Source: a virus (Duplodnaviria; Heunggongvirae; Uroviricota; Caudoviricetes). Taken from it: a DNA stretch of 64,000 nucleotides. The DNA lies in IMG/VR virus record IMGVR_UViG_3300006141_000002; one strand, 5' to 3'. The notes beneath the pieces were generated by a model that was not told where the DNA came from, did no database searches, and saw only the letters and a list, made by a program, of their open reading frames with translations. Below are positions 32,649 through 50,008 of the stretch, one piece after another (position 1 is the first letter of the stretch; the number at the start of each line of letters is the position of its first letter). The translations under genes and the position numbers were made by a program.

Positions 32649-32657
32649 CTCTAATAT

Positions 32658-32978: not shown

Positions 32979-33407
32979 ATGATGGATTATCTGAGCTTTT
33001 ACCACAATGGCAGGCGGTGTACTTGCCATTCCTGCAAGCACTTTTCTTGTTCGGTAGCGGAAGCCCCATGCAAAGATTGTATACCAGGACTGGAAAGCGG
33101 AAGGTTCTTTGATCGTCACGCAATTAAATATGATGAAAATCCAAGATTTGTGGGTGAAACGATAAAAGTCCATGAACTCAAAATTCTTCCGAAATATTTT
33201 TCCTTTGAGAAAAACTTCGAACTTCGGAGGAACGATAGGGACTTTGTGGTTGGCGATATTGTGGTGCTTCGAGAATGGAGCTCTGACAACGGATACACCG
33301 GAGAGTATTCCATCCGTATGATTCAGTACATCCTTAAAGACGCAAAAGAATATGGGTTGGCCGATGGATACTGTATCCTTGGGCTTTCGGAAAGCGCTCC
33401 ATGGTAA
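32979..33407 (+). CDS. PUA/ASCH-like (DUF3850-type) protein
   Basis: HELKILPKYF..FEKNFELRRNDRDFVVGDIVVLREW pattern; RBS GGAGG. Confidence 0.45.
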   Translation: MMDYLSFYHNGRRCTCHSCKHFSCSVAEAPCKDCIPGLESGRFFDRHAIKYDENPRFVGETIKVHELKILPKYFSFEKNFELRRNDRDFVVGDIVVLREWSSDNGYTGEYSIRMIQYILKDAKEYGLADGYCILGLSESAPW

Positions 33408-33425
33408 GAGAGAGGAGCGTCTTGA

Positions 33426-33569
33426 ATGAAACGAGAAGATTTCGTATCTGATTTGGCATGGGAACGGTATGTCGAGGAACGTTCTTGTTGCCGCAAACTC
33501 TACCAAAAACAAGGCTTCTGGTGTTTGGCGATAGTCATACTTTTCATTATCGTTACAGCAATCAAATAG
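33426..33569 (+). CDS. 47-aa membrane peptide
   Basis: RBS GAGAGGAG; C-terminal hydrophobic segment. Confidence 0.2.
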   Translation: MKREDFVSDLAWERYVEERSCCRKLYQKQGFWCLAIVILFIIVTAIK

Positions 33570-33597
33570 TTCTTTGATGCGAAGGAGGTTGGCGCGA

Positions 33598-34410
33598 GTG
33601 AGTAGCAAAATGAACAGAATTCCATTTATTGGTTCCTACGAAGACATAAGGACTGAGATGCGGGATGACCTGCGGTATAGATTACAGAGCAGGAAGGTGG
33701 AAACGTCCCTTGGCCGACCTCTGTACTACCGTATCAATGTCCAGTTGATTACAACGGAAGAGTGCCCCTTTAACTGCCCGTTCTGTTTGGAGCGGCAAAA
33801 CCCTATGGCGGGCGACAATAATTTCCCTGCCCAAATCGAGGCTTTGAAAATAGTACTTGGCGAGCATCCAGATGCCAGACTTACCATAACAGGTGGAGAA
33901 CCAGGACTTTACCCAGAGCAGATTGCGAATATCGCTGAGACATACAGGTGTAATAGCAACAATGTTTTTTGCTCTATCAATACTGCTGGTTTCAACGCAG
34001 ACCTGAGTGGGTTGGCTCATATCAACCTGTCCCACAATGAGTTCGTCCATGCAAATCCGGCCCGGTTTCCCGGTTGCACAGTCCAAACAGTGATGGAAAG
34101 TCCGTCTCTCTCGTCAATCAAAGATTACATGAAGATAGATGCCGACAGCTTTTCGTTCCGGTTCCTTAGCGGGCTTGAGAAGAAGGATTACCCGGTAGAT
34201 ATCTGGAATGCTCTGCAAGAGGACGAAGAAATTGATGTACATACATTCAGAATCGGTGACTTCTTTGTCTATGCGACCTTTGACTACGATGGAAAGCACG
34301 CCCGCGTAACACTTGGAGATATGTGGCAGCAACGCCAGAATGACTATGGAGCCGGATACTCCAATATCATAATCCACCCAGACGGTCGGATTGGTACGAA
34401 CTGGAGATAA
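33598..34410 (+). CDS. radical SAM enzyme
   Basis: CPFNCPFC (CX3CX2C) and TITGGEP glycine-rich SAM motif. Confidence 0.6.
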   Translation: MSSKMNRIPFIGSYEDIRTEMRDDLRYRLQSRKVETSLGRPLYYRINVQLITTEECPFNCPFCLERQNPMAGDNNFPAQIEALKIVLGEHPDARLTITGGEPGLYPEQIANIAETYRCNSNNVFCSINTAGFNADLSGLAHINLSHNEFVHANPARFPGCTVQTVMESPSLSSIKDYMKIDADSFSFRFLSGLEKKDYPVDIWNALQEDEEIDVHTFRIGDFFVYATFDYDGKHARVTLGDMWQQRQNDYGAGYSNIIIHPDGRIGTNWR

Positions 34411-34525
34411 AAATGAGTAAGAAAACATTTATTTCCTGGTTGGCCTGACAGGCTTGGTTTGGGCTGTAACCACAGATATCGAGCACGATGAATAAAACAG
34501 TCCTTTGATTAGGAGGCGGCCAAAG

Positions 34526-34711
34526 ATGGAAGAAAGCATATTGTTCCTCATTTATTGTTCTGCAATTATCATCCTTTCGTTGCTGCGTTTGGCGCTTCAA
34601 TTTCTGTCGAAAGAAAGTTACTATTTAACATACAAGAGGCTTTTGGATTTGTTAGATTGGTTCTTTCTGGGTGGTGCAACGTTTTATTCCATCATGAACT
34701 GGCCATGGTAA
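34526..34711 (+). CDS. small membrane protein
   Basis: two hydrophobic helices; RBS AGGAGG. Confidence 0.35.
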   Translation: MEESILFLIYCSAIIILSLLRLALQFLSKESYYLTYKRLLDLLDWFFLGGATFYSIMNWPW

Positions 34712-34730
34712 TGGAGGGGATATCGTGAGG

Positions 34731-34976
34731 ATGTATCAAATGTATGTCTGTGAACATTGCGGCAAAGAGTCTCTGAGCCATGATGCGATTGAGGAATGTG
34801 AGGCTGCCCACATGGGATTAACCATGGCGGAGAAACGCACTTTGGACGCGTTGAAATCTGCTGCAAAGTATTTTGGAAGCATTGTATCAAGAACCAATAA
34901 CGAGAAGACGCGAGCTGCATATGACGACGCGATTGAGAAACTTGTTTCGTTTGAGCAATCTCACGGAATAACATAA
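34731..34976 (+). CDS. small zinc-ribbon protein
   Basis: CEHCGK... Confidence 0.35.
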   Translation: MYQMYVCEHCGKESLSHDAIEECEAAHMGLTMAEKRTLDALKSAAKYFGSIVSRTNNEKTRAAYDDAIEKLVSFEQSHGIT

Positions 34977-34988
34977 AATTACTCTTCT

Positions 34989-35075
34989 GTGGGCGTGGTG
35001 GAATTGGAAGACACATGGAGTTTAAGCCTCTATATCGGGTTCGATGTGCGGGTTCAATTCCCGCCGCCCACACCA
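34989..35075 (+). tRNA. tRNA-Leu (anticodon TAA)
   Basis: class-II tRNA: D arm GUGGAAUUGGAAGACAC, anticodon loop UUUAAGC, variable arm AUCGGGUUCGAU, CCA encoded. Confidence 0.7.
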
Positions 35076-35078
35076 TAT

Positions 35079-35164
35079 GTCGATGTGATGGAATAGTAGA
35101 CATGACAGGCTCAAACCCTGTTGGCTCTAACGCCGTATGGGTTCAAATCCCATCATCGACACCA
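35079..35164 (+). tRNA. tRNA-Leu (anticodon CAA)
   Basis: acceptor GUCGAUG/CAUCGAC, anticodon stem ACAGG/CCUGU loop CUCAAAC, long variable arm. Confidence 0.7.
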
Positions 35165-37382: not shown

Positions 37383-37637
37383 ATGATTAACGTCACTATC
37401 GGTAACAACCTGAAGCGCGCCCGTTTCAACCTGAACCCCAACACCACCATCCGCCAGGCTCTGGAGAGCACCCAGGGCGAGACCGGCATCGACTACTCCG
37501 TGGGTATGCTGTCCCTGGACGGCGAGACCGTCACCGGTGCCAAGCTGGATCAGACCTTCGCCGAGATGGGCTACACCGGCGAGCCCGGCCACGACAAGTG
37601 CTTCCTGATCTCCGTCGTCAAGGCTGACAACGCCTGA
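37383..37637 (+). CDS. 84-aa candidate ubiquitin-like (beta-grasp-sized) protein
   Basis: size, beta-beta-alpha start (MINVTIGNN..KRARFNL..TTIRQALES), and position directly upstream of the E2/JAB/E1 genes; no terminal GG. Confidence 0.35.
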   Translation: MINVTIGNNLKRARFNLNPNTTIRQALESTQGETGIDYSVGMLSLDGETVTGAKLDQTFAEMGYTGEPGHDKCFLISVVKADNA

Positions 37638-37726: not shown

Positions 37727-39220
37727 ATGTTCTCAAAAGAAATCACTGGTCTGACTCTCACCAATGAGATCGCATCGACCGTATTCCCGAATATCGGCGG
37801 AGATAAGTTCCGCAATGACGAGTCGTTCGTTGCGACCTTGAGAGCTTTGCTGTATAGCAGGGTTCCGAAAGAGGAGTCAATCACACTGCGATATAAAAGC
37901 ACAGACTACAGTTCCGGGCAGTTATCTGGCTCGTCTCCGAGAGACTGCGTCAGGGCTTTCTTTAACCGAACTCCGATTATGGATGGTTCAACCGGCATTT
38001 TGCTCATCCATTCATTTGAGGGGAGCGACGAGAGCAACACAACCTGCTTCGAGAAACTCGTTGAAGGTGTTCCAAAGACAGTCTCTGGATACAAGCTCCT
38101 GGCGGATCTGTCCGCATGGATTGAGAGCGACGCAAAGTTCCGCGCCAAGGTCTATGTGAACGAGGAGTACCGCAACACCATCATCTTCACGGAAAAGATG
38201 AACATGAAGCGGTGGCACATGCTGGAGTCTCTGATTTCCCGCTACTTCCCGTGGTACTTCGAGTCCAATCCGATGACTGACGAGGAGATTGAGATCGTCA
38301 AGACGCTCACAAAGCGTTACGCCCCCAGCTATGAAACGAAGATTCAGGAGTTCGCCAAGCGGTTTGACTTCCGGTCACAGGTTATCCGCAATCAGTTGAC
38401 CGGCTTTGAAACACACTTTGACCGCCGGAAGCTGGAGTCCGTCCGCAGCCAGATCAACGATATGGATCGCAGGATGCGTGATTTGGAGAGCACTTTCTCC
38501 AATTACTACCAGCAGATGGACGACCTGAGAACGCAGGAGTGCGGTCTGGTCGATAAAATCACACACGGAGGCGGCGCGGAGAGCAGCGAGCTTTTGGACT
38601 ACTTCCTATGCAACAATTCGCTGCATCTGGTCAGCGTATACAATGGCGAAATCAAGTTCATTGTAACCACCACGGTTGCAAACTTCGATCCTGACGCAGC
38701 GGAGTCCGTCATTCAGAATAACCGTAGCTACATCTATGAATATCGTGACAACGAAAATATGACGGTAGAGCGCATTAAGCGTCTGATGACGGAGATTTTC
38801 GTCAAAGAGACGATGAAGATTCGCATTTGCGCCGCATATTCGCTGAACTTCGATAACGGCAGGTACGCCGGGATTAGCGGATACGATTTCCCGTCGGATA
38901 TCATCATGGATCACACGCCGAACCAGCACATCCAGGCGTTTCACTGCCTTGGTGGAAATGAGGCGACAATTCGCCAATCTATGCGTAACCGGGATTATGT
39001 CGGCGCGGTAGCTGCTTGTGTTCAGTCGGCAAAGAGCGTCAATGTTCAGGAGAGCGCAACAACCGGCAAGATGACGCAGTTGCTGTTCTCGAACAGGATC
39101 GGTAAGGTAATCGAAATGCCCGACGGTACGACCAAGACGCCGTTTGAGGCCGTATTGTGGTTGGAGGAACAAGATGTCAAGGCGAAGAAAGAAAAAGAAC
39201 AGGAGGAGAGCCATGAGTAA
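37727..39220 (+). CDS. 497-aa protein with C-terminal E2(UBC)-like active-site region
   Basis: HTPNQHIQAFHCLGG reproduces the E2 HPN-x7-Cys spacing; operon context with JAB and E1. Confidence 0.4.
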   Translation: MFSKEITGLTLTNEIASTVFPNIGGDKFRNDESFVATLRALLYSRVPKEESITLRYKSTDYSSGQLSGSSPRDCVRAFFNRTPIMDGSTGILLIHSFEGSDESNTTCFEKLVEGVPKTVSGYKLLADLSAWIESDAKFRAKVYVNEEYRNTIIFTEKMNMKRWHMLESLISRYFPWYFESNPMTDEEIEIVKTLTKRYAPSYETKIQEFAKRFDFRSQVIRNQLTGFETHFDRRKLESVRSQINDMDRRMRDLESTFSNYYQQMDDLRTQECGLVDKITHGGGAESSELLDYFLCNNSLHLVSVYNGEIKFIVTTTVANFDPDAAESVIQNNRSYIYEYRDNENMTVERIKRLMTEIFVKETMKIRICAAYSLNFDNGRYAGISGYDFPSDIIMDHTPNQHIQAFHCLGGNEATIRQSMRNRDYVGAVAACVQSAKSVNVQESATTGKMTQLLFSNRIGKVIEMPDGTTKTPFEAVLWLEEQDVKAKKEKEQEESHE

Positions 39221-40085
39221 GCCCATTAAGCTCACGGACGAGCTGCTGCAAAAAATTCAGGAGGAGTTCATCGCAAAGGTGAAGTCCACCAAGATGTTTG
39301 ACGGAAAGCTGGAATACAGCCGGACGTTCAAGTGGGAGGGCGATGACGACCGGGCAACTGTCTACCTGTCCTCGATTGCCTTCGCCAAGATGAACTCGCT
39401 CATTCAGCAGTTCAACGACGAGGTCGCGTGGCACGGCGTGGTTCACCGTGATGAGCAGGATCCGTCCATCTTCCACATCACCGACATTTTGGTATACCCG
39501 CAGGTTGTTACCGGCGCAACGGTCAACACCGATCAAGAGGCGTACCAGACGTGGCTTTACTCCTTTGATGATGATGTGTTCAATAACATCCGGATGCAAG
39601 GACACAGCCACGTCAATATGGGCGTGTCTCCCTCTGGTGTGGACACAACTCACCAGGAGAAGATTCTGGAGCAAATCTCCGATGACGACTACTACATCTT
39701 CATGATCTGGAACAAGCGGTACGAGCACTTTGTCCGCATCTTCGATCTGAAGAACAACACCCTGTACGACACGGCAGATGTTGATGTGTATATTGGAGAT
39801 GTCGGCGTGGATCTTCAGGCTTTCATCAGCAGCGCCAAGGAGATCGTCACCAACAGAACCTATAAGCCTGTCACCGGTTTTCAGGGAACCTATCAGCAGA
39901 CGCAGACGCGGGTCGTCACACCCATCAGTCAGACAACAACGCCGGCGGCGACGGCCGGTGCGAGCGTCGTCGGAGTCAAAACAAAACCGAAGGTAAACGG
40001 AGGTGATACCGGCATTGGCCGGTCCTTTTCCGACTACCAATTCGACGAAGACGATCCCTATGACCGCCTATACCTCGGACAGTAA
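39213..40085 (+). CDS. JAB/MPN+ (JAMM) metalloprotease, deubiquitinase-like
   Basis: HSHVNMGVSPSGVD matches the JAMM HxHx7Sx2D motif; upstream Glu in EVAWHG; 8-nt overlap with upstream gene. Confidence 0.65.
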   Translation: MSKPIKLTDELLQKIQEEFIAKVKSTKMFDGKLEYSRTFKWEGDDDRATVYLSSIAFAKMNSLIQQFNDEVAWHGVVHRDEQDPSIFHITDILVYPQVVTGATVNTDQEAYQTWLYSFDDDVFNNIRMQGHSHVNMGVSPSGVDTTHQEKILEQISDDDYYIFMIWNKRYEHFVRIFDLKNNTLYDTADVDVYIGDVGVDLQAFISSAKEIVTNRTYKPVTGFQGTYQQTQTRVVTPISQTTTPAATAGASVVGVKTKPKVNGGDTGIGRSFSDYQFDEDDPYDRLYLGQ

Positions 40086-40102
40086 GAAAGGAGAGACAAA
40101 CA

Positions 40103-40774
40103 ATGGATTTGGCGAAGTCCTACGAATTCTTCAAGCCGGATATGCTCGAATCGCGGATTCATATCATCGGCTGTGGAGCGATTGGTTCCACGGTCGCTGA
40201 GAATCTGGTGCGGTTCGGCATTACGAAAATCACGCTGTATGACTTCGATACCGTAGAAGCCCACAACATTGCCAACCAGATGTTCCGGAATACGGATATC
40301 GGCAAGGCCAAGGTTGATGCTTTGGCTGAGTATCTCACCGAGATCAATCCGGACTGCGCCCCCGATCTGAAGCTGGTCAAAGAGGGCTGGACAGGCCAGC
40401 GTCTCTCCGGTTATGTGTTCCTGGCGGTGGACAACATTGACCTCCGCCGGGAGATCGCCACCTCCTGTAAGGAGAACACGTTCGTCAAGGGGATGTTCGA
40501 CTTCCGGATGCGGCTGACGGACGCCCAGCACTATGCCGCTGACTGGAGCGACAAGAAGATGGTGGAGAACTTTATCGACAGCATGGCGTTCTCTCATGAT
40601 GAGGCAAAAGAGGCGACGCCCGTTTCTGCCTGCAATATCACACTGTCGGTTGTTCCGACGGTGCGAACGATCGTTGCCTACGGCGTAGCCAACTTCATCA
40701 ACTTCGTGAAGGGCGAGAAACTCCGCAAGATGATTCTTGTGGATGCTTTTGAATTCGACGTGATCGCCGTGTAA
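40103..40774 (+). CDS. E1-like ThiF/MoeB-family adenylyltransferase
   Basis: IHIIGCGAIGSTVAENLVRFGITKITLYDFDTVEAHNIANQMF matches the Rossmann GxGxxG + DxDxVExSNLxRQ-like ThiF signature. Confidence 0.7.
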   Translation: MDLAKSYEFFKPDMLESRIHIIGCGAIGSTVAENLVRFGITKITLYDFDTVEAHNIANQMFRNTDIGKAKVDALAEYLTEINPDCAPDLKLVKEGWTGQRLSGYVFLAVDNIDLRREIATSCKENTFVKGMFDFRMRLTDAQHYAADWSDKKMVENFIDSMAFSHDEAKEATPVSACNITLSVVPTVRTIVAYGVANFINFVKGEKLRKMILVDAFEFDVIAV

Positions 40775-40794
40775 GGCATCACGTTTTACGATAG

Positions 40795-40835
40795 TTCTAT
40801 AGGGGCAGTGGCTTTGGTTGCCGCTGCCCCTTCCA
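40795..40835 (+). terminator. rho-independent terminator after the E1 gene
   Basis: GGGGCAGUGGC-UUUGGUU-GCCGCUGCCCC then UUCC. Confidence 0.5.
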
Positions 40836-40839
40836 TATA

Positions 40840-41218
40840 GTCTGTATTGCATTACTTTCAGAGTTATTCTGAGGGTGCTCTGTATTGTAAATCAGAGTTG
40901 CGCATGGCTGGGAGAAGGGACACCCCGCCCGGAGGCGGAATCTGAAGGCGCCTGCCCGCCACCGAGGTCAAGAGGTAATAAATAAACTGTTTTCTACTGC
41001 TCCAAATACGCAAAGAACTCTTGACATCTCGACCAGAAAGGTGACGGACAGCAAACAGGAAGACAGATGGCGACCCCAAGAACCATCGGACCGCCGCAAA
41101 TCACTCACCAGATTACCCACCGAGCCCGCACTCAGTCCCAGCTCTCAAGTACCCATCGCATCCTGAATTCCTCAACCTACTGTATACCAGAATACAGACA
41201 TCAGGAGGTATTAAAAAT
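40840..41218 (+). ncRNA. candidate retron-type ncRNA (msr/msd) or structured leader upstream of the RT
   Basis: GC-rich hairpins; ATAGTCTGTATTG at about 40840 complementary to CAGAATACAGAC at about 41184 (a1/a2-like). Confidence 0.2.
40878..40897 (+). repeat. hairpin repeat copy 1 (CTCTG-TATTGTAAAT-CAGAG) with 25-nt conserved 3' extension
   Basis: 5 copies in window, stem covaries in copy 5. Confidence 0.6.
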
Positions 41219-42358
41219 ATGCCATACATAACCGTCATGCAATCGCCTGCATACCATCAGATATCATTTGAGGAAATCATATCTGGTGAGGTCAACATGC
41301 AGTCTATGATAACTTCAAACAGCACCAATACCAGAACGCATTTCGCACAGCGACTCAAGCCACAGTTTCTGGATCGGTTCGATTTCGCCGGTATGGTCTC
41401 CGCTCTGGAGAGTTTTTGCGAACAAAATGCCGAGCTGTATGCCGTTCCGAGAGAAGCCCTCTATACCACATTCCATATTCCGAAGAAGTCCGGCGGCCTG
41501 CGTGAGATCAATGCCCCTGTGCCAGAACTGATGACGGCGCTTCGGAATCTGAAGACTTTGTTTGAGACCAAGATGTTTGCGCTGTACCACACCTCCGCCT
41601 TTGCCTATGTTAAGAATCGTTCCACCATTGACGCCATCAAACGTCACCAGAGGAATGACAGTCATTGGTTCTTAAAGACGGATTTCTCGAACTTTTTTGG
41701 GGACACAACGCTGGTATTCCTTCGGTATTCGCTCTCTTTGATTTTCCCGTTCAGCGAGATTGTCAAGTCAGAACGGGGCAGAGCAGCACTGGACAAGGCA
41801 CTCAACCTCTGTTTTCTTCATGGCGGATTGCCGCAGGGCACGCCGATTTCTCCGATGCTCACAAATCTGATGATGATCCCCCTTGATCACAAGGTATACA
41901 ATACCCTGCGTGATTTTAACGGGCAGTCGTTCGTTTACACCAGATACGCAGACGACTCTCTAATTTCAAGCCGGAGAGAGTTTGACTACAATAAGGTCAT
42001 CGACTTCATCAATCAGACGCTGGATGATTTCCATGCGCCGTTCAAGATCAAGGATGAGAAGACGAGGTATGGTTCCAGAGCCGGCAGTAATTGGAACCTC
42101 GGGCTCATGCTCAATAAGGACAATGAGATCACCATCGGTCACAAGAACAAGCAGCGTTTTCGTGCAATGATCAGCAACTACATCCTCGACCGTAAGAACG
42201 GAATTGTCTGGGAACTGCACGATGTTCAGGTTTTGCGCGGCCTTATCAACTACTACCGGATGGTTGAAGAAAAGTATGTTGACGAGGTCATCAAGTACAA
42301 CAACGAAAAATATCAAACGGACGTAATGCGTACCATCCATGAGGATTTGGCCGCATAA
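41219..42358 (+). CDS. retron-type reverse transcriptase
   Basis: IPKKSGGLREI, NRSTIDAIKRH, FLKTDFSNFFG, LPQGTPISPMLTNL, YTRYADD; C-terminal region alignable to the retron INxKKT...VTG...IG region with NLG for VTG. Confidence 0.7.
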   Translation: MPYITVMQSPAYHQISFEEIISGEVNMQSMITSNSTNTRTHFAQRLKPQFLDRFDFAGMVSALESFCEQNAELYAVPREALYTTFHIPKKSGGLREINAPVPELMTALRNLKTLFETKMFALYHTSAFAYVKNRSTIDAIKRHQRNDSHWFLKTDFSNFFGDTTLVFLRYSLSLIFPFSEIVKSERGRAALDKALNLCFLHGGLPQGTPISPMLTNLMMIPLDHKVYNTLRDFNGQSFVYTRYADDSLISSRREFDYNKVIDFINQTLDDFHAPFKIKDEKTRYGSRAGSNWNLGLMLNKDNEITIGHKNKQRFRAMISNYILDRKNGIVWELHDVQVLRGLINYYRMVEEKYVDEVIKYNNEKYQTDVMRTIHEDLAA

Positions 42359-42404
42359 ATAAGCAAAATTTTGTAATGTATAGCCTTTTGTTCCTCAAAA
42401 GGCA

Positions 42405-42424
42405 CTCTGTATTGTAAATCAGAG
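42405..42424 (+). repeat. hairpin repeat copy 2 + conserved extension TAACGAATGGCTGGGAGAAGGGAGCC
   Basis: preceded by a small variable hairpin GCCTTTTG..CAAAAGGC. Confidence 0.6.
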
Positions 42425-42730
42425 TAACGAATGGCTGGGAGAAGGGAGCCTGCCAGGCTGCGCAGTGCTGCCGGCCGCGACGGCAGCAGGAGATGCTAAA
42501 CACCCTTACCAACATCACGAAGAACGGAACTATTACCGAACTGCACATTTCGCCAGGAAATCAGCAGGAACTCCGTCACAAAAATTCCTGAAACCTGACA
42601 CCAGTTCGGACAGCCGGGAACACACGAGATGACATTCCCAGACTCACCTCTCTGGAGGAAACCATGGCCAGCTTCCTATCCCTTATGGTAGATTACAAAG
42701 TTTATGCAAAGCATGAAAGAGGTGGTTGAT

Positions 42731-43282
42731 ATGATTCAACTGGCAGTCGAAGTCAGTGATTTGGATTGCGGCGAATCCAAAGTCATTGTACTGCCATGTA
42801 ATCTGCGGGCAGAATTAGAGAATCATTATGATTACATTATTCTGTCCACCACGCCCAACATTCCAATCAGCCGAAACGACGATATCAGTGGATTGAACGA
42901 TATACTGGATGATATCAACAGCGAAAATCCTGGGATGACGGAAGATTATTTGAAGGTTCTGATGGAAGCTTCGTCTTCTGGTGACCTGTTCGATCCGGAA
43001 TTTGTGCGTAAGCTGAAAGAAAACGATTTTATGTTCGAGGACATATCTGATCTTCATTGGGCGATGAACGCAAAGGAGACCGCAGCTTGTTATCTGGCGA
43101 CTGAACTCAAAGTGCCGTTTGACCACGGTGTTACAGACGAGATGCTTGACACCCTCAGTAAAGACGTGCTGACCGACTATATCAACTGGGGACAGGTTTG
43201 GGATCAGTATTCTTCTGTTGGTTTTCGGGTCGTTGAGCAAGAGCCGCCGACCGGCGGGCGATATATTGTGCATATAAAATAA
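42731..43282 (+). CDS. acidic hypothetical protein (DNA-mimic/anti-restriction-like composition)
   Basis: RBS AAGAGGTGG; Asp/Glu-rich. Confidence 0.4.
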   Translation: MIQLAVEVSDLDCGESKVIVLPCNLRAELENHYDYIILSTTPNIPISRNDDISGLNDILDDINSENPGMTEDYLKVLMEASSSGDLFDPEFVRKLKENDFMFEDISDLHWAMNAKETAACYLATELKVPFDHGVTDEMLDTLSKDVLTDYINWGQVWDQYSSVGFRVVEQEPPTGGRYIVHIK

Positions 43283-43321
43283 CTTTGTTGTTGCGATGTA
43301 TTTTAAGTCGAAAGACTTAAA

Positions 43322-43341
43322 CTCTGTATTGTAAATCAGAG
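43322..43341 (+). repeat. hairpin repeat copy 3 + conserved extension
   Basis: ACTCTGTATTGTAAATCAGAGTAACGAATGGTTGGGTGGAGG. Confidence 0.6.
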
Positions 43342-43810
43342 TAACGAATGGTTGGGTGGAGGATGACGGCTTGGCGGCCGCAGTGCGTGCGATCAGAGAT
43401 CCCGCGGCAGCCGACGACCACCTGCTCAGGCGCCGACCCGCACAGGGGCCATCAGGACAAAGGTCACCAAACCCGCCAACACACTGAGACTCAAGGAGTT
43501 CGGCACCCGATGTCAGGAACCCACAGACACACGACATCATTCCAAACCAGATGACAGCAGTAACCGGGAGCTGTATCCGGATGCAGGGAGCCCTCCTCGT
43601 AGCCTGCCGAGATATAATGCAGATCACAAACAACAAAGTGCGTATTTCAAGGACTTTAGGACGCTGATCCGAGTATTTATTTGAAATAAGAGGTAGTGGA
43701 AAATCCCGAGTTCAGCGTCCTTTTGCCATCCCATGCAGTATGGCTATTATGTATGGGATAAAACACAGGTTTTAAGTATTGCGCCAGACTTTCACGAAAG
43801 GGTGGTATCC

Positions 43811-44146
43811 ATGGCAAGGTATCAAATTGGAGATCGAGTAGAAGCTATCGTCAACAACCCAGATGAGAGTGACTATATCATGGTTGGCGATACTGGAACG
43901 GTGTGCGATATTGACGGAGATCATGTTGGTGTCGATTGGGATAATGAATTAGGTGAAGGACATGATTGCTCCGGAAATTGTGAGTACGGCCACGGGTGGT
44001 ATGTCCATACGAGATATATCAGGCCGTACGAAGATGATGTTGAAGATATCGACGAGAACTCCTTCCTTGGTGTCGCTCTCCGTGCGGGGGGGGTGACAAA
44101 GCGTGATGGAATTTCAAGTAGGAGATTGTGTCGAAGCTATTCGTAA
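43811..44146 (+). CDS. small SH3-like domain protein, C-terminus ENSFLGVALRAGG + 17-aa extension
   Basis: paralog of 44103 gene; 8-G tract 44086-44093 encodes AGG. Confidence 0.45.
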   Translation: MARYQIGDRVEAIVNNPDESDYIMVGDTGTVCDIDGDHVGVDWDNELGEGHDCSGNCEYGHGWYVHTRYIRPYEDDVEDIDENSFLGVALRAGGVTKRDGISSRRLCRSYS

Positions 44147-44384
44147 TCATCCAGACGGCAATCCTGATATCAAGATAGGCGACCTTGGCACAGTATGCAG
44201 GGTATCAGATAATATTGGTGTTAATTGGGGTAAGCCCATCCAAAGAGGACACGACTGCGGACATACTTGCAAGCATGGACTTGGATGGTATGTTGGACGC
44301 AATGAGATCAGGCTGTATGAACCAGAAGGAACCATCGACATTGAGGAAGACAGCTTTATGCGTATGCTTGGAGGTTCAAAATGA
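44103..44384 (+). CDS. small SH3-like domain protein, C-terminus EEDSFMRMLGG+SK
   Basis: shares GD.VEAI.N.PD......GD.GTVC.....GV.W......GHDC...C..G.GWYV with the upstream paralog. Confidence 0.45.
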   Translation: MMEFQVGDCVEAIRNHPDGNPDIKIGDLGTVCRVSDNIGVNWGKPIQRGHDCGHTCKHGLGWYVGRNEIRLYEPEGTIDIEEDSFMRMLGGSK

Positions 44385-45055
44385 TCTATGTGACAGGGGA
44401 TACTCATGCGGACATTGACATAAAAAAGTTGTCTGTCAAGAACTTCCCGATGCAAAAATCGCTCACTAAGAAGGATTATTTAATTGTCTGTGGGGATTTT
44501 GGGCTCATATGGGACGGTTCTACACGAGAGATATGGTGGAAAAAATGGCTCGCGGGTAAAAACTTCACCACGCTCTGGATCGATGGGAACCATGAGAATT
44601 TTGATATCCTCCGCAAATTTTCGCTTCAAGATAAGTTCGGTGGTAAAGTCCGAGAAATAGCGCCAAATATTTACCATCTGGAGAGAGGACAAGTTCTGAC
44701 CATCGACGGGCAAAGGTTCTTTGTGATGGGCGGTGCAAGATCTCATGACAAAGAATATCGTACAGAACATATTTCTTGGTGGAAAGACGAAATGCCATCT
44801 ATGGAAGAGATGGAACGGGGGATCAACGCGCTTGATAACAACGGATGGTCTGTTGATTATGTGTTAACGCACTGTGCGCCAAGAAGCATTCAGACCATGA
44901 TTGCAGATTGGTATGAAAATGATCCGCTCGTAAGCTATCTGGAGCGTATTATGGTTGACCTTCAGTTCAAACGTTGGTATTTTGGACACTACCATATCGA
45001 CAAAATTATGAATGATCAATTCATTGCCTTATACAATAAGGTAATGCTTGTATAG
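44381..45055 (+). CDS. metallophosphoesterase (Ser/Thr phosphatase-like)
   Basis: GDTHAD, GDFG, GNHE motifs. Confidence 0.6.
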   Translation: MIYVTGDTHADIDIKKLSVKNFPMQKSLTKKDYLIVCGDFGLIWDGSTREIWWKKWLAGKNFTTLWIDGNHENFDILRKFSLQDKFGGKVREIAPNIYHLERGQVLTIDGQRFFVMGGARSHDKEYRTEHISWWKDEMPSMEEMERGINALDNNGWSVDYVLTHCAPRSIQTMIADWYENDPLVSYLERIMVDLQFKRWYFGHYHIDKIMNDQFIALYNKVMLV

Positions 45056-45090
45056 TCCTACGGAGCGGTCAATTCGACCGCTCCCAATAT

Positions 45091-45165
45091 TGGGGTGTCG
45101 CCAAGCGGCAAGGCAAGGGACTTTGACTCCCTCATTCGCTGGTTCGAATCCAGTCACCCCAGCCA
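45091..45165 (+). tRNA. tRNA-Gln (anticodon TTG)
   Basis: acceptor UGGGGUG/CACCCCA, anticodon stem AGGGA/UCCCU loop CUUUGAC. Confidence 0.65.
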
Positions 45166-45169
45166 ACAT

Positions 45170-45244
45170 GCTGATGTAGCTCTAATGGCAGAGCGAGGCT
45201 TTCGTAAAGCTTAGGTTCGCGGTTCGAGTCCGTGCATCAGCTCC
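45170..45244 (+). tRNA. tRNA-Thr (anticodon CGT)
   Basis: acceptor GCUGAUG/CAUCAGC, anticodon loop UUCGUAA. Confidence 0.6.
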
Positions 45245-45248
45245 ATTT

Positions 45249-45324
45249 GCTGGTATAGCTCAGTTGGTAGAGCATCGGTTTTGTACTCCGAGTGTCGCGG
45301 GTTCGACTCCTGTTACCAGCTCCA
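45249..45324 (+). tRNA. tRNA-Thr (anticodon TGT)
   Basis: acceptor GCUGGUA/UACCAGC, D arm AGCUCAGUUGGUAGAGC, anticodon loop UUUGUAC. Confidence 0.55.
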
Positions 45325-45429
45325 CCCCGAAAGGGGAACGTGCAAACATGGTATTTAATAAGACAGCGCACCCATGCGGTCTATAACAATGTGGGGAACG
45401 GCCCGGCTATACGCCGGGCCTCTTTTACG

Positions 45430-45847
45430 GGGCCGTAAAGGTTTCGACGGGGTTCTGAGAGAGTAAGATTCGCAGGTAGAGACCGCCTTAAGGCTAAACA
45501 AAAAATGAAATGACAATGATATGAGTGTTGTTATGATCCATCCCGCTTTCGCCGCCTTCATGGCAGAGAGGGTCGCCGCTTAACTGTCGGCAGGATTCCA
45601 AAACGGTACACCTCTGGCTGGGTAAGTACCTGCGGTCGAGGATACGCCAGAAAAACAGTTTTCCTTGTAATCTGTTCAAAAAGACAAGGTGGTGGAGGTG
45701 TACTTAACTGGTACGCCCTGGGGTAGATTTGGATTCCATCTTGGTGCCCCGCCATAAGGCATCCACCTAAAAGGAAACCTATTGCGTAAAAAGGTCTTGC
45801 TCATGTAGGAATTTCGGACGCGGGTTCGATTCCCGCCGGCTCCACCA
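45430..45847 (+). ncRNA. ssrA: tmRNA (SsrA)
   Basis: 5' GGGGCCGUAAAGGUUUCGACGGGG and 3' GGACGCGGGUUCGAUUCCCGCCGGCUCCACCA match the tmRNA tRNA-like domain consensus; candidate tag ORF ending ..AFMAERVAA-stop near 45540-45590. Confidence 0.7.
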
Positions 45848-45850
45848 TCT

Positions 45851-45926
45851 GTGGGAGTAACTCAACTGGCAGAGTGCCGTCCTTCCAAGTCGGAAGCTGC
45901 GGGTTCAAGTCCCGTCTCTCACTCCA
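45851..45926 (+). tRNA. tRNA-Gly (anticodon TCC)
   Basis: acceptor GUGGGAG/CUCUCAC, anticodon loop CUUCCAA, T-loop UUCAAGU. Confidence 0.55.
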
Positions 45927-45927
45927 G

Positions 45928-45960
45928 CGTGCCGTAGTTCTCGGCACGATCTTTTTCTTT
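45928..45960 (+). terminator. rho-independent terminator
   Basis: GUGCCG-UAGUUCUC-GGCAC then UUUUUCUUU. Confidence 0.5.
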
Positions 45961-46083
45961 GCTCCAAAGTACACGGAGCACCCCGCCGCCCTGCGGGATG
46001 GGCACGCTCAAAACCGAGTGTAGCAGGTTTACAGGGACGCTCGCCTGCGGGAGTCCTGTTTTTAGAGCTACACAATACAAAAT

Positions 46084-46250
46084 GTGCGGTGGCGGAATAG
46101 GTAGACGCTATAACGAGAGGTAGGGTAAGACAATGGTTCGAGTCCATCGTTGTCCTCCTGTTTGGGTTCGGTGAAGTAGCCGATGGGCGACAAGCTCGGT
46201 AGCAGGTACATAATCTTACCTATGCGGGGTGAAAATCCCCGCCCGCACAA
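46084..46250 (+). other. about 167-nt tRNA-Leu-like element with expanded middle (no encoded CCA)
   Basis: 5' UGUGCGG-UG-GCGGAAUAGGUAGACGC (tRNA-Leu D arm) ... 3' GCGGGGUGAAAAUCCCCGC-CCGCACA pairing the 5' end. Confidence 0.3.
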
Positions 46251-46253
46251 TAT

Positions 46254-46329
46254 CTGGGTGTAGCTCAGTTGGCAGAGCGCGTGATTTGGGATCACGAGGC
46301 CGGGAGTTCGATCCTCCCCACTCAGACCA
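46254..46329 (+). tRNA. tRNA-Pro (anticodon TGG)
   Basis: anticodon stem CGUGA/UCACG loop UUUGGGA. Confidence 0.65.
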
Positions 46330-46332
46330 TAC

Positions 46333-46407
46333 GGCCCGGTAGTCAAGCGGTTAAGACACCAGACCTTCACTCTGGTAACGCGGGTTCGACTCCCGTCCGG
46401 GTCACCA
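46333..46407 (+). tRNA. tRNA-Glu (anticodon TTC)
   Basis: acceptor GGCCCGG/CCGGGUC, anticodon loop CCUUCAC (C33). Confidence 0.55.
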
Positions 46408-46431
46408 ATTCAACAGAAAGGGGTCTTCTTC

Positions 46432-46872
46432 ATGACACGTCAGGAATTTATCGAAGGTGTAAACTCATTCGGCGACCTAATCAGTTTCTGTGTTGATGAG
46501 GGAATTGATGATCTCTGCAACGATGTTTATGATGCAGAATACCTCAATGAAATCCTGCTGGAAACAATCGGCAATATGCGTGACTGGGAAGAAATCCGTG
46601 GCCTTCTGGCGAACATTCCGACTCGTTGCGATTACTACCGCGAGGATGGATATGGCGGATATGAGGACGCAGATTATTCATTTGACGACTACAAGAACGA
46701 AGTCCTCCGGCATATGGACGAAAACGAAGCGTGGGATGAAGAAGAAGAAAATGTCGAAGACGATATTGAAGAAGACACCGATGAAGATGCCGACGACTGG
46801 TTTGCGCCTGCTGACATCGAGGAGGATATTGAAACGGACAGCTTTATAGCTGTGCTTGGGAGGGCGAGCTGA
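46432..46872 (+). CDS. highly acidic protein, C-terminus ETDSFIAVLGRAS
   Basis: Asp/Glu-rich 146 aa; shares the C-terminal motif family. Confidence 0.5.
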   Translation: MTRQEFIEGVNSFGDLISFCVDEGIDDLCNDVYDAEYLNEILLETIGNMRDWEEIRGLLANIPTRCDYYREDGYGGYEDADYSFDDYKNEVLRHMDENEAWDEEEENVEDDIEEDTDEDADDWFAPADIEEDIETDSFIAVLGRAS

Positions 46873-47486
46873 TGGGACAGTATTATAGACCGCTGATGAT
46901 TTTTGAAGACGGAGAGGAACGGTCTGCGTATTCTCACGCATTTGACAATGGGCTCAAGCTGATGGAGCACTCATGGATCGGCAATAACTTTGTTAACGCG
47001 GTGCTGCATGAAATCGAGGACAGACCGGCCCGTATCGCATGGATGGGAGACTATGCCACCGATGCAGTGGAGGATGGATGCAACTTTGGTGATGGATATA
47101 TCACAAGTGTTGAAGCCTTCCTTGAAAAGTATAACGGCGTGTGGGGTGAATACAGAAGCGTTCAGGATATCTCACCGGAAACGCCACAATATAAGCTCGA
47201 TCTCGACAGCGCCGGGTGCTATCTGGTGAATGCAACGAAAAAGTGCTACATCGACATAGAGGAATACATAAGGCGGAACTCCGTCCGCGACAGATACGGG
47301 ATGTCTGGCGTGTGGTGTATCAACCCGCTTCCGCTTCTCACTTGCATCGGGAATGGCATGGGAGGCGGAGATTATCGCGGAGAGGCTGGCATGGGAGATG
47401 TCGGTTCTTGGGCGTTTGACAAAATCTATATCACATATCTAAGACCTGGGAACTGGGAGAGAGTTGACTACAGGTTCCAGGAGTAA
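46872..47486 (+). CDS. hypothetical protein
   Basis: 204 aa, start overlaps upstream stop (ATGA). Confidence 0.45.
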   Translation: MGQYYRPLMIFEDGEERSAYSHAFDNGLKLMEHSWIGNNFVNAVLHEIEDRPARIAWMGDYATDAVEDGCNFGDGYITSVEAFLEKYNGVWGEYRSVQDISPETPQYKLDLDSAGCYLVNATKKCYIDIEEYIRRNSVRDRYGMSGVWCINPLPLLTCIGNGMGGGDYRGEAGMGDVGSWAFDKIYITYLRPGNWERVDYRFQE

Positions 47487-47532
47487 TAATCATTTTGCAG
47501 CGTATTAGCCCACAGTCTGCGTACATAGGGCA

Positions 47533-47552
47533 CTCTGTATTGTGAATCAGAG
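47533..47552 (+). repeat. hairpin repeat copy 4 (CTCTG-TATTGTGAAT-CAGAG)
   Basis: GGGCACTCTGTATTGTGAATCAGAG. Confidence 0.55.
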
Positions 47553-47750
47553 AAACGCAAGGGTAACCGTTCACACGCTCAAAGAAGTTCCTCCGAATGA
47601 TCAAAGATCCGTACGGATCGCGGGCGATCCTCCCGGATCTTGGATCATCGGCGTCACTTCTTCAAGGCTGCAAAAAGAAAATTCCGACAGTTCTGTAATG
47701 TATATCGCCTGTTATAACCAATCAATACATAAAGCGGGCACTCCGTATTG

Positions 47751-47770
47751 TTAATCGGAGTATGGATTTG
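47751..47770 (+). repeat. hairpin repeat copy 5 with compensatory stem change (CTCCG..CGGAG)
   Basis: GGGCACTCCGTATTGTTAATCGGAG. Confidence 0.55.
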
Positions 47771-47933
47771 TTTGTTTCCTCGCTGCGCGAGCGCGACGAG
47801 GTCGGCTGACGCCGACGAAGTCGCGCCGCTCGCGAGTCCTTTGGCATCATTCAGATGTCCAGTCACATCTCACCTGGACATCTGTAATGACGGATTACAG
47901 AACGAACAACATATCAGTTTAAGGAGAAAACCA

Positions 47934-48452
47934 ATGCGGCAAGTACGAAATTCGGTGTTTGAGACCAATTCCAGCAGCACCCACTGTATTTGTATTGTGA
48001 CGGACAGGAAGGCTGAACTAGAATATCCAGAAAAGGTGTATTTTCGATGTGACGATTTTGGCCGAGAGCCTGCTGAACTGCGGTCAGTCGAGGATAAGGC
48101 TGCGTATTTATACTCCAGTATCCTGTCGCTTTATGAAATGAAAAAGGCAGAGAACGCAAAGACATGGATTATGGAAGAACTGATGAAAGTTGGTGTTCAA
48201 TGTGAGTTTGAAAAGGCCACCTATCACAGATATGGAAGCGGCGTTTATTGCGTTAATGCTTTTGTCGATCATGCTGGTGAGGACGATCATCTGAGGTTCG
48301 TGGACGGAATACTTCGGAGCAGCGGGCGGCTGCTCCGTTATTTATTCTCCGATAAAAGCGTTGTTTTAACAACAAGTGATGAAATTGACGATGATCGCGT
48401 GGAAAATTTCCATGTCGATTACCGGCACGAATTTTACTACAAGGGGAACTAA
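47934..48452 (+). CDS. hypothetical protein with N-terminal MRQVRxxVFETNSSSTH motif
   Basis: RBS TAAGGAGAAAA; paralogous N-terminus with 52986 gene. Confidence 0.45.
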   Translation: MRQVRNSVFETNSSSTHCICIVTDRKAELEYPEKVYFRCDDFGREPAELRSVEDKAAYLYSSILSLYEMKKAENAKTWIMEELMKVGVQCEFEKATYHRYGSGVYCVNAFVDHAGEDDHLRFVDGILRSSGRLLRYLFSDKSVVLTTSDEIDDDRVENFHVDYRHEFYYKGN

Positions 48453-48462
48453 GGAGGTACAT

Positions 48463-49011
48463 ATGAGTAAGGTATTGGTCATTGTTGATATGCAAAACGA
48501 TTTCATTGATGGGTCTCTTGGCACCAAAGAGGCGCAGGCGATTCTGCCGAAGGTTGTTGCGAAAGCCGAAGAGTTTGACGGCGAGATCCTTGCAACCTTT
48601 GATACCCACGATAAGGACTATCTGGAGACGCAGGAAGGGAAGATGCTCCCCGTTGAGCACTGCATTGATAAGACCGAGGGCTGGTGCGCCCCTGATGTGC
48701 TTTTCAATGCAATCGTAGACAAGGAGGAGTGGACTTCTACTTTCAGAAAGAAAACGTTTGGCTCTATTGAACTTGGCGAGTACCTGCGCATTAAAAACAG
48801 CGTGTCGAGCCATATTGACGAGATTGTCCTGGTCGGCCTCTGCACCGATATCTGTGTCATTTCCAACGCGCTGCTGCTTAAAGCGTTTTTGCCGGAAGTC
48901 AAAATTACGGTGGATGCCGCTTGCTGCGCTGGCGTGACACCAGAGAGCCACGAAAATGCCCTCAAGGCCATGAAGATGTGTCAAATCAACATTGAGAACT
49001 GGGAGGAGTAA
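48463..49011 (+). CDS. pncA: nicotinamidase/isochorismatase-family cysteine hydrolase (PncA-like)
   Basis: VDMQNDF Asp, LVGLCTDICV Cys of the D-K-C triad; RBS AAGGAGG. Confidence 0.6.
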   Translation: MSKVLVIVDMQNDFIDGSLGTKEAQAILPKVVAKAEEFDGEILATFDTHDKDYLETQEGKMLPVEHCIDKTEGWCAPDVLFNAIVDKEEWTSTFRKKTFGSIELGEYLRIKNSVSSHIDEIVLVGLCTDICVISNALLLKAFLPEVKITVDAACCAGVTPESHENALKAMKMCQINIENWEE

Positions 49012-49014
49012 GAC

Positions 49015-49815
49015 ATGATTCTGGTGAACAGAACCCCTGTTAACTTTACGCAGTTCCCAGACGGGACCACATCCTTCCGCCTTGATACCAAAGACGCTGT
49101 CTGGTTCCGTATTGAGTGGCGGTATGATGGCGACCACGAGTGTATGCTCCTGTGGCATTTGGTGCATCACATTCGGGCGAACAATCGGATGGGTGTGGAT
49201 ATTGAGCTCGTTTTGCCGTACATTCCCAATGCTCGTATGGACAGGGTCAAGAGCGGCGACGAGGTGTTCACCCTGAAATGGTTCGCCGAGTTCATTAACA
49301 CTCTCAACTTTCGTAAGGTTGAAGTGCTTGATCCACATTCCAATGTGGCGGCAGCGCTTATCGACCGCATCTGCGTGAAGGAGCCTGCGGACAATATCCG
49401 TCTGGCTATTGAGCGTGTCATGGCTGATACAGGCGATACTGATGTTCTGATGTGCTACCCGGACGAGGGCGCTGCCAAGCGGTACTCCGACCTGATGGGC
49501 CGGGAGTATGTGTTCGGTATCAAGCACCGTGACTGGCGCACTGGCAAAATTGAAGGGCTTGAACTCGCCAACAGTGAGAAGGTCGCCGGTCGAAATGTTC
49601 TTATTGTGGACGACATTTGCTCCCGTGGCGGTACGTTTACCCATACTGCTGCTGCCCTGAAAGAAGCTGGTGCAAAGGAAATTTTTCTGTATGTGTCCCA
49701 TTGTGAGAGCACCATCTTCAAGGGCTCCGTGTTGACAGATGGCCAGATTTCACGAGTATTTACAACAAACAGCATCTATCGTGGTGAACATGAGAAAGTG
49801 GCTGTATTAGAGTAG
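49015..49815 (+). CDS. PRPP-synthetase-like phosphoribosyl pyrophosphokinase (Prs/Adps-like)
   Basis: VLPYIPNARMDR (Prs catalytic flexible loop), VLIVDDICSRGGTF PRTase type I motif. Confidence 0.6.
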   Translation: MILVNRTPVNFTQFPDGTTSFRLDTKDAVWFRIEWRYDGDHECMLLWHLVHHIRANNRMGVDIELVLPYIPNARMDRVKSGDEVFTLKWFAEFINTLNFRKVEVLDPHSNVAAALIDRICVKEPADNIRLAIERVMADTGDTDVLMCYPDEGAAKRYSDLMGREYVFGIKHRDWRTGKIEGLELANSEKVAGRNVLIVDDICSRGGTFTHTAAALKEAGAKEIFLYVSHCESTIFKGSVLTDGQISRVFTTNSIYRGEHEKVAVLE

Positions 49816-49831
49816 TCATAGGAGGTGCGCG

Positions 49832-49999
49832 ATGAGATGGCTTATCAACTATATCCGCTCGCTGTTTTGCAAACATGAGTGGGAACATATCACGAGAGTA
49901 ACCAACTATTCTGAGTGGGCTCCACAGGATATGCCTATTGGATACACAGAAATATACCGTTGCAAAAAGTGTGGTTATGTCCAGAAAATTCACTATTGA
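49832..49999 (+). CDS. 55-aa zinc-ribbon protein
   Basis: CKHEW...CKKCG; RBS GGAGGTG. Confidence 0.3.
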   Translation: MRWLINYIRSLFCKHEWEHITRVTNYSEWAPQDMPIGYTEIYRCKKCGYVQKIHY

Positions 50000-50008
50000 G
50001 GTGACAAT

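Follow-up and report, generated by a model that had tools for sequence, protein, structure and literature searches.

A phage reverse transcriptase of retron type and the non-coding units around it

The DNA analysed here is a 64,000-nucleotide (nt) stretch of the IMG/VR virus record IMGVR_UViG_3300006141_000002, referred to below as the window, and our subject is a reverse transcriptase (RT) gene within it together with the repeated non-coding units that flank this gene. A preliminary description of the DNA had read the RT and its upstream region as a retron carried by a phage, and this retron reading is supported by the analysis. The phage origin is confirmed: the window is a tailed-phage genome with a portal protein gene (10077-11633), a large terminase subunit gene (11648-13477), 12 tRNAs and a transfer-messenger RNA (tmRNA).

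All of the RT motifs originally quoted are found in the RT open reading frame (ORF), with IPKKSGGLREI at amino acid (aa) 87, FLKTDFSNFFG at aa 151, QGTPISP at aa 206, YADD at aa 243 and NLGLMLN at aa 293, and Pfam RVT_1 matches the ORF with an expect value (E) of 2.6e-17. Retron RT profiles span aa 70-374, residues 1-70 form a conserved extension beyond this coverage, and the profiles detect no maturase or endonuclease domain, in agreement with the lack of such an extension in the preliminary description. The proposal that the RT is of retron type is borne out by four kinds of comparison. The best PADLOC model is the retron RT_II-A (6.3e-47, 158 bits), and the best 25 families shown are all retron RT classes. 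The best NCBIfam family is retron_St85_RT (175 bits, 2e-51), followed by group II RT/maturase (81 bits), Drt2 (46 bits) and Drt3a (28 bits). The closest sequences in the PDB are likewise retron RTs, namely those of Ec83, the Ec78/St85 family, Ec67 and Ec86. Finally, when an AlphaFold2 model of the RT (mean pLDDT 86.9, pTM 0.80) was searched against the PDB with Foldseek, the top 12 matches were all retron RTs and group II RTs ranked next. Target-normalised TM-scores were 0.65-0.80 for retron RTs of similar size and 0.37-0.40 for Eco2, a longer fusion of RT and Toprim; the solved DRT2 and DRT9 RTs are detectable structural relatives, with scores of 0.37-0.46. Judged by profile matches and the predicted fold, the RT is a non-canonical member of the retron clade. 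More than 5,000 homologues were found, the best 120 of which each match 93% or more of the RT with an identity of 61% or higher, and one of these 120 is named 'retron-type reverse transcriptase' by the Joint Genome Institute (JGI). YADD, QGTPISP and NWNLG are invariant across the RT family. A group II intron was not detected, with no Rfam intron match to the window at E up to 1.

Between the stop of the ThiF-like gene (40774) and the RT start there are 444 nt without a conserved ORF. The upstream region had been described as ORF-free, GC-rich and rich in hairpins. The first point holds, with no ORF of at least 60 aa on the RT strand that relatives keep, and two covarying hairpins are present; the second does not, since the GC content is 0.50 compared with 0.49 for the window and reaches 0.73 only at 40914-40965. 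The complementarity reported between the two ends of this region is real and shows compensatory changes in relatives, although its exact length is 9 base pairs (bp) rather than 12-13. A 9-bp complementarity is weak when taken alone, and its significance comes from the comparison across the units of relatives. In agreement with the msr/msd-like layout that had been proposed, the closing stem of this region forms upon folding, with a z-score of only -2.4, and the G that follows the 5' arm, at 40849, is invariant. We refer to the region as unit 1 (Table 1).

The hairpin-2 sequence of unit 1, CTCTGTATTGTAAATCAGAG, has five matches in the window with 0-3 mismatches, where 0.01 would be expected. 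Consistent with this count, a covariance model (R1) built from the 5' module of the unit and run over the window with filters off gave exactly five matches, all on the plus strand, all within 7 kb of the RT and each with its own arm pair. The structured region upstream of the RT is therefore a retron-like unit as originally suggested, but its 5' part is not specific to the RT, recurring four more times in the window. The R1 match of unit 2 scores 70 bits (E 4e-13), and its arms TTTGTAAT and ATTACAAA pair. The match of unit 3 scores 58.7 bits, with arms ACTTTGTTGTT and AACAACAAAGT forming 11 bp, and that of unit 4 scores 37.5 bits, with pairing arms TTTTGCAGC and GCTGCAAAA. Unit 5 scores 47.8 bits and has arms of 10 bp. 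Units 4 and 5 fold like textbook retron non-coding RNAs (ncRNAs), each having two small hairpins and a long one in addition to the closing stem; the fold z-score is -4.8 for unit 4, where the closing stem is accompanied by an msd-like hairpin of about 85 nt, and -7.7 for unit 5. No family of Rfam 15 overlaps any of the five units, either at gathering thresholds or at E up to 1.

Table 1. Coordinates of the RT, the five units and the neighbouring features in the window
Feature	Position	Strand	Description
RT ORF	41219-42358	+	379 aa; retron-clade RT by profile and model, YADD intact, NLG for VTG, N-terminal extension of ~70 aa
Unit 1	40840-41199	+	G 40849; directly upstream of RT
Unit 1 5' arm (a2-like), GTCTGTATT	40840-40848	+	Exact 9-bp complement of 41191-41199
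Unit 1 G after 5' arm	40849	+	Candidate branching G
Unit 1 hairpin 1	40853-40877	+	Stem sequence differs between units
Unit 1 hairpin 2, CTCTGTATTGTAAATCAGAG	40878-40897	+	Tip shared by every unit of a genome; candidate element for recognition by the RT
Unit 1 variable (msd-like) region	40914-41190	+	Ends ...CCAG; candidate template
Unit 1 3' arm (a1-like), AATACAGAC	41191-41199	+	19 nt before RT start codon
Unit 2	42370-42699	+	Arm 42370-42377, G 42378, 3' arm 42692-42699; between RT and acidic ORF
Unit 3	43282-43639	+	Arm 43282-43292, G 43293, 3' arm 43629-43639; after acidic ORF
Unit 4	47493-47675	+	Arm 47493-47501, G 47502, 3' arm 47667-47675; abuts unit 5, no intervening gene
Unit 5	47690-47903	+	Arm 47690-47699, G 47700, 3' arm 47894-47903; precedes 172-aa ORF
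Hairpin 3' of E1 (ThiF-like) gene	40801-40831	+	Terminator-like without U-tract; 8 nt before unit 1
Conserved upstream block	36900/37383-40774	+	p224, 84-aa protein, p497, JAB-like, E1/ThiF-like
84-aa small protein	37383-37637	+	No C-terminal GG; found in most, not all, RT-anchored loci
p497	37727-39220	+	497-aa protein, family not recognised
JAB-like protein	39177-40085	+	Rpn11 match, E 0.005
E1/ThiF-like protein	40103-40774	+	Pfam ThiF 1.6e-26; PDB matches E1 (Uba1) / Cap2
Acidic ORF	42731-43282	+	183 aa, isoelectric point (pI) 4.2; flanked by units 2 and 3
Metallophosphoesterase	44381-45055	+	Pfam Metallophos 2.5e-11; phrog_1649 2.4e-38

Units accompany the RT throughout a phage lineage

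We compared the window with 121 related loci: 61 viral loci found through the RT (45-85% RT identity), 26 loci from metagenome-assembled genomes (MAGs), also found through the RT, and 34 loci anchored on the neighbouring E1 gene. The sets overlap, in that the E1-anchored loci L088 and L089 are contigs of L002 and L003. All 121 loci belong to the same phage lineage and typically have 2-5 units flanking the RT. R1 gave 157 matches in the viral loci, 45 in the MAG loci and 41 in the E1-anchored loci, every one of them on the RT strand. A typical viral locus has a unit some 300-370 nt ahead of the RT and one or two more immediately behind it, and an ORF-free stretch of about 240-420 nt precedes the RT in all 61 viral loci. 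The RT is present in 33 of the 34 E1-anchored loci, and the remaining one ends at the end of its contig. The 26 MAG loci come from human, ruminant, horse, rabbit and termite guts; GTDB matches to the RT are all MAGs of inconsistent taxonomy, mostly Clostridia. Among isolated phages in the phage collection, none carries the RT, the best match there being an unannotated faecal contig with 42% identity and the others falling below 30%.

A scan of all 2.9 million IMG/VR contigs with a degenerate hairpin-2 motif identified 63 stretches, 46 of them in contigs that had already been found through the RT. R1 confirmed three of the other 17, which belong to contigs of this phage family and are found as far as about 10 kb from the RT; the remaining 14 have neither an R1 match nor the RT, which is about the number roughly expected by chance. 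In L102-L105 (at about 7160-7725) and L111 (7536-7608) a unit is located about 2.4 kb upstream of E1, ahead of or overlapping the start of the p497 tblastn match, indicating that units in some of the more distant clades are not confined to the immediate flanks of the RT.

Covariation and arm pairing across relatives

The units upstream of the RT have a common order consisting of a 5' arm, an invariant G, a variable hairpin 1, a conserved hairpin 2, the motif AGTAACAAnTTG, a variable region, (T)GTAG or xAG, and a 3' arm. When the units were aligned independently with MAFFT, all 12 pairs predicted by RNAalifold (12/12) had compensatory changes. Across the 83 distinct R1 matches, 92% of cells in the 5' module are paired; helix 1 is 84% paired and helix 2 97% paired, with compensatory changes at seven of the eight pairs of helix 2. 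The covariation score of the 5' module was 0.825, compared with 0.27 after shuffling (equalled in 0/500 shuffles) and no more than 0.19 once the pairing partner was slid.

Pairing of the two arms was similarly specific. At least eight anchored exact pairs are present in 46 of the 65 distinct units, and this level was reached by 5% of swapped and 0.9% of shuffled arms. In most units the longest exact long-range duplex stops right before the invariant G and restarts just after ...AG. We also used anchors that do not depend on pairing, taking the G as placed by the model together with an ATGTAG that occurs only once downstream, which left 20 distinct units. Arm positions 1-10 are paired in 65-100% of these, and positions 1, 4, 7, 8, 9 and 10 show alternative Watson-Crick pairs to an extent that exceeds 998-1000 of 1000 permutations. 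The G after the 5' arm is an invariant column in a 23-sequence alignment and is found in all but one of 90 R1 matches, the exception being a weak and possibly misaligned match (L001:104). A conserved branching G is present in the msr of retrons (PMC8632793). On the other side of the helix, 64 of 66 units have a G immediately ahead of the 3' arm, and the next base upstream is A in 56 of the 66. The 3' half of the variable regions is poor in G (0.19, compared with 0.25 in whole loci).

Units of the same genome have little in common outside one element. Their identity is 0.32 in the distal arms and 0.30 in the hairpin-1 stems, whereas the hairpin-2 tip is 0.91 identical within genomes and 0.53 between genomes; the tip reads TATTGTAAAT in the window and is of the CGCCAAAGGC type in other clades. 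A common tip on units that are almost unrelated in their distal arms and hairpin-1 stems agrees with the idea that each genome has one trans-acting protein recognising all of its units, and the retron RT would be the obvious candidate for that protein.

The same data bear on the possibility that the repeats are non-autonomous mobile elements resembling miniature inverted-repeat transposable elements (MITEs), or the template and target repeats of a diversity-generating retroelement (DGR). Such a reading would account for repeated elements of 180-370 nt bounded by inverted repeats next to a phage RT, and we nevertheless regard it as scarcely credible. The arms differ between copies of one genome (distal identity 0.32) yet remain complementary within each copy, which points to a folded strand and not to a common transposase site; the units are always oriented with the RT strand, and their positions are syntenic across loci with 45-85% RT identity. 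Arm divergence with retained complementarity and the syntenic positions led us to reject the MITE form of this explanation. The DGR form was rejected as well, as the RT falls in the retron clade and not the DGR clade and blastn (word sizes 7 and 11) found no diverged second copy of any variable region in the window, only chance matches of 10-15 nt.

A comparison with the closely related locus L122, whose RT is 96% identical to that of the window, separates the parts of the unit further. The 5' modules and 3' arms are 95-100% identical between the two, with the 3' arm of unit 1 100% conserved, and third codon positions of the flanking genes are 87-91% identical. The variable region of unit 1 is only 71.6% identical. 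These identities indicate that the scaffold is under constraint and that the template of unit 1 changes faster than synonymous sites. Within this variable region an island at 41016-41027, GCAAAGAACTCTTGACAT, is perfectly conserved with L122 in diverged surroundings, and CTTGAC or its complement GTCAAG reappears in RT-upstream units of other clades. The island may bind a protein, act as a stop signal or represent a -35 promoter element.

A retron-like array that may serve several templates

The reading we prefer, and hold to be probable though far from certain, is that the locus is a phage retron-like array, in which one retron-clade RT would serve several template RNAs and make several complementary DNAs (cDNAs) resembling multicopy single-stranded DNA (msDNA). 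By analogy with retrons, we infer that the RT may act on the units, prime from the G and produce cDNA. Transcription of the units would follow the RT strand and place them in long transcripts, as leaders or between genes, and each unit would fold so that its 5' arm pairs with its own 3' arm 165-350 nt away. This pairing would set the invariant G opposite the conserved xAG that precedes the 3' arm. The RT would then bind the hairpin-2 tip, identical in all units of one genome, prime on the 2'-OH of the invariant G and copy the variable region from the A of the AG motif towards hairpin 2. The predicted products are a set of different branched RNA-DNA molecules of the msDNA type, roughly 100-280 nt in length.

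Several observations weigh against this interpretation. The NCBIfam score of the RT for retron_St85_RT, 175 bits, is below the curated cut-off of 235. Of NAxxH, a retron RT motif, the RT keeps only the H, with AIKRH opposite NALAH in the HMMER alignment to solved retron RTs. In the same alignment NLG stands opposite VTG ('nwNLGlmLn' versus 'hvTGvtLn'), confirming a replacement that had been noticed by eye, and 'VTG' in RT motif 7 marks most retrons (PMC8632793). The variable regions of units 1-3 are long (251-277 nt) and mostly weakly structured, unlike a classic msd hairpin. Profile searches (Pfam, PADLOC, NCBIfam and PHROGs) recognised no retron effector among the neighbours, as the preliminary description had also found. 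The pair counts of one alignment (A3) are somewhat inflated because A3 was fitted to the model; the independent MAFFT/RNAalifold alignment agrees with the model-fitted one. As relatives that bear units all carry the RT, nature offers no case that would reveal whether the units depend on it. Lastly, units 1, 2, 3 and 5 lie directly upstream of ORFs, and the 3' arms of units 1, 2 and 5 end about 19-31 nt before a start codon.

The last of these points is what the strongest alternative builds on. The units may be leader or regulatory RNAs of the phage that are unrelated to the RT, for example elements for antitermination or processing in the style of lambda nut or HK022 put sites, with hairpin 2 read by a phage RNA-binding protein or RNA polymerase and the closeness to the RT reflecting operon layout. 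Nut-type sites occur in multiple copies with a common hairpin, and several copies with one genome-specific hairpin are thus as typical of them as of the units. In unit 1, moreover, the Shine-Dalgarno sequence GAGG (41205-41208) is predicted to pair with CCUC (41170-41173). Such sequestration is not predicted for units 2 and 5, and we rejected translational control as a general explanation because it is predicted for unit 1 only. Other features fit leader RNAs poorly. Units occur back to back without a gene between them, as units 4 and 5 do in the window and those at 7167 and 7451 in L010; the many other operons of the 64-kb window have no unit; and a closing helix that covaries over 9-10 bp, bridges 165-350 nt and has an invariant G at its junction is a retron layout and not a feature of nut or put sites. 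Scans of 40000-48500 gave no information on the leader-RNA reading: promoter-like sites were not enriched (15 compared with 10.3 ± 3.3 expected), and the terminator-like calls inside units are hairpin 1 itself. Overall we consider a nut- or put-type origin of the units unlikely.

A second alternative keeps the RT and its templates and changes the chemistry. The RT could use the units without branch priming, starting from a protein, a 3'-OH or by a rolling mechanism as in DRT or Abi systems, and would then yield unbranched cDNAs or repeats. The departures of the RT from retron signatures (NLG, loss of NAxxH and the N-terminal extension) leave room for this, as do the detectable structural relationship to the DRT2 and DRT9 RTs, the long templates of units 1-3 and the G-poor 3' half, which would suit an unstructured template. 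Retron RTs are nevertheless clearly nearest by structure (TM-scores of 0.65-0.80 versus 0.37-0.46) and by profile (175 bits versus 46 for Drt2), and an invariant G at the helix junction would have no obvious purpose if priming were not of the branched kind. Priming of this kind therefore appears distinctly unlikely to us.

Returning to the retron-like array, its role would be expected on the side of the phage. That the array is a core module of the lineage and not patchy cargo, together with the fast change of the unit 1 template, favours a part in conflict; with low confidence, we suggest that the cDNAs might be decoys or sensors against factors of the host or of rival phages. A cis effect of the units on the genes that they precede is also possible, and the array of the lineage may work together with the E1/JAB block that precedes the RT. 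At its widest, the proposal is that a widespread lineage of large phages from animal guts uses a retron-type RT as a fixed core function, with 2-5 templates giving several msDNAs, as a natural 'multitron' that serves the virus and has fast-evolving templates as decoys or sensors; this we advance tentatively, as a serious possibility that falls somewhat short of being probable. The full-text literature that was searched contains no description of a natural retron with multiple ncRNAs, of this phage family or of an RT linked to E1/JAB.

Retrons have so far been understood as defence systems of bacteria or prophages that combine one template RNA with a single RT and a single effector. If the array is active, retron chemistry would have been adopted as a conserved core function by a phage lineage of lytic type, with one RT naturally serving several templates in a manner so far known only from engineering. 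An active array would further imply a role for msDNA beyond guarding a host toxin and would offer a natural scaffold for several single-stranded DNAs at once. Because the hairpin-2 tip changes in step across the units of a genome, the code by which RT and RNA recognise each other might be readable by comparison.

Comparison with known systems

The nearest RT profiles, RT_II-A and retron_St85_RT, point to Ec86 (Eco1)/St85 of type II-A as the closest known system. In both cases the RT gene is immediately preceded by an ncRNA encoded on its own strand, and Ec86 and the phage units are alike in having a 5' arm followed by G, a G before the 3' arm, two hairpins after the first G and a compact RT without an extra domain. 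The Ec86 ncRNA sequence that we used is 100% identical in 48 E. coli genomes, where it lies beside a gene annotated 'retron St85 family effector protein', and its 5' junction reads TGCGCACCCTTA-G... and its 3' junction ...GAC-G-TAAGGGTGCGCA. We take the G after the 5' arm of Ec86 to be the branch point. The phage array differs from Ec86/St85 in having five ncRNA units per RT instead of one (typically 2-5 in relatives), in the RT itself (NLG for VTG, NAxxH lost, a ~70-aa N-terminal extension and a score below the NCBIfam cut-off), in variable regions of up to 290 nt and in lacking an effector resembling nucleoside deoxyribosyltransferase. It is also a fixed core feature of a large phage and not an accessory element of bacteria. 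In the strict sense, then, the array is not a retron, as VTG, NAxxH, the rule of one ncRNA and the effector all fail while the RT clade and the RNA architecture match.

Ec67 (Eco2) and Ec73 share with the window a retron-clade RT borne by a phage, and the Ec67 RT is a detectable homologue. Both are single-ncRNA defence cargo of temperate elements of the P2/P4 type, with the effector fused or adjacent. By contrast, the phage gene has no integrase or effector nearby, is found in every member of the lineage examined and has its ncRNA arrayed.

In the type VI Retron-Vpa2 one transcript contains both the template and a coding sequence downstream of it, and translation of the latter is controlled by the cDNA (bioRxiv 10.1101/2025.10.22.683967). 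Units 1, 2, 3 and 5 resemble it in lying in the leaders of downstream ORFs. The RT is of another subtype, however, there is no helix-turn-helix protein or small toxin, some units have no gene behind them and sequestration is predicted for unit 1 only. Engineered retron arrays ('multitrons'), in which one RT services several tandem ncRNA/msd units (PMC10370050), are the closest parallel in organisation; they are synthetic, and a natural counterpart was not found in the literature searched. Phage DGRs also combine a phage RT with a nearby non-coding template, but their RT belongs to another clade, and in the window neither a template/variable repeat pair nor an Avd-like accessory gene was seen.

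Neighbouring genes

Where the sequence of a related locus extends over the 5' flank of the RT, the genes for p497, the JAB-like protein and the E1/ThiF-like protein are found ahead of the RT, essentially without exception. Those for p224 and the 84-aa protein are usually found further upstream, which we report for RT-anchored loci only. The domain matches suggest that the block from p224 to E1 may be a phage-encoded ubiquitin-like conjugation cassette. Neither p497 nor the 84-aa protein has a family match in Pfam, NCBIfam or PHROGs or a sequence match in the PDB, so that the block is not tied to a function. Adjacency by itself is no proof of a functional link between the RT and E1/JAB, because the whole lineage has the same gene order. 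In many loci an ORF of about 268 aa is inserted between E1 and unit 1. The hairpin that follows E1 in the window corresponds to inverted repeat I1 (12 nt, 92% complementary). Its loop is TTTGGTT here and the reverse complement, AACCAAA, in L122, indicating that the loop is inverted between these two loci.

Downstream of the RT, the acidic ORF pointed out previously is present with a length of 183 aa. It has no match in Pfam, PADLOC, NCBIfam or PHROGs. The ORF is found in the clade of the window itself (L001-L004) and in L093, and homologous ORFs of 183-186 aa follow the RT in L122-L124. This restriction to the closest clade and a few other loci makes it unlikely to be an obligate partner, and with no family match and its absence from most relatives we rejected it as an effector. 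The metallophosphoesterase gene is the first gene after the post-RT units in most relatives. Further downstream, beyond unit 5, there are nicotinamide adenine dinucleotide (NAD+) salvage genes at 48466-51756, including a nicotinamide phosphoribosyltransferase gene at 50230-51756 (phrog_448, 1e-156). This region might be involved in counter-defence. In the close relative L124, genes of the isochorismatase and phosphoribosyltransferase families are found further downstream of the RT.

Other elements in the window

A tRNA cluster at 45091-46407 includes the tmRNA (45429-45847), whose tag peptide is AVEDTPEKQFSL. A further tRNA region extends from 32567 to 35164, and the tRNA at 32567-32652 was called with the four-base anticodon 'acat'.

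Matches resembling the twister-P1 ribozyme were found at 24316-24388, 25903-25968, 28206-28260 and 29598-29652 (E 5e-10 to 1.5e-5), all below the gathering score. At 24799-24933 and 27125-27181 we identified a RAGATH-4 match (73 bits, E 6e-14, gathering score 104) and a weak match to the type III hammerhead (E 0.05). These ribozyme-like matches sit in long intergenic gaps and coincide with the direct repeats D4, D6 and D7; as far as the matches go, they look like a cluster of putative self-cleaving ribozymes on a phage. Within 23169-24302, D6 is an exact 55-nt tandem duplication, at 24167 and 24248. Repeated non-coding elements are also present at 21729-21821 and 29650-29743, where D10 and D13 are two copies about 7.9 kb apart.

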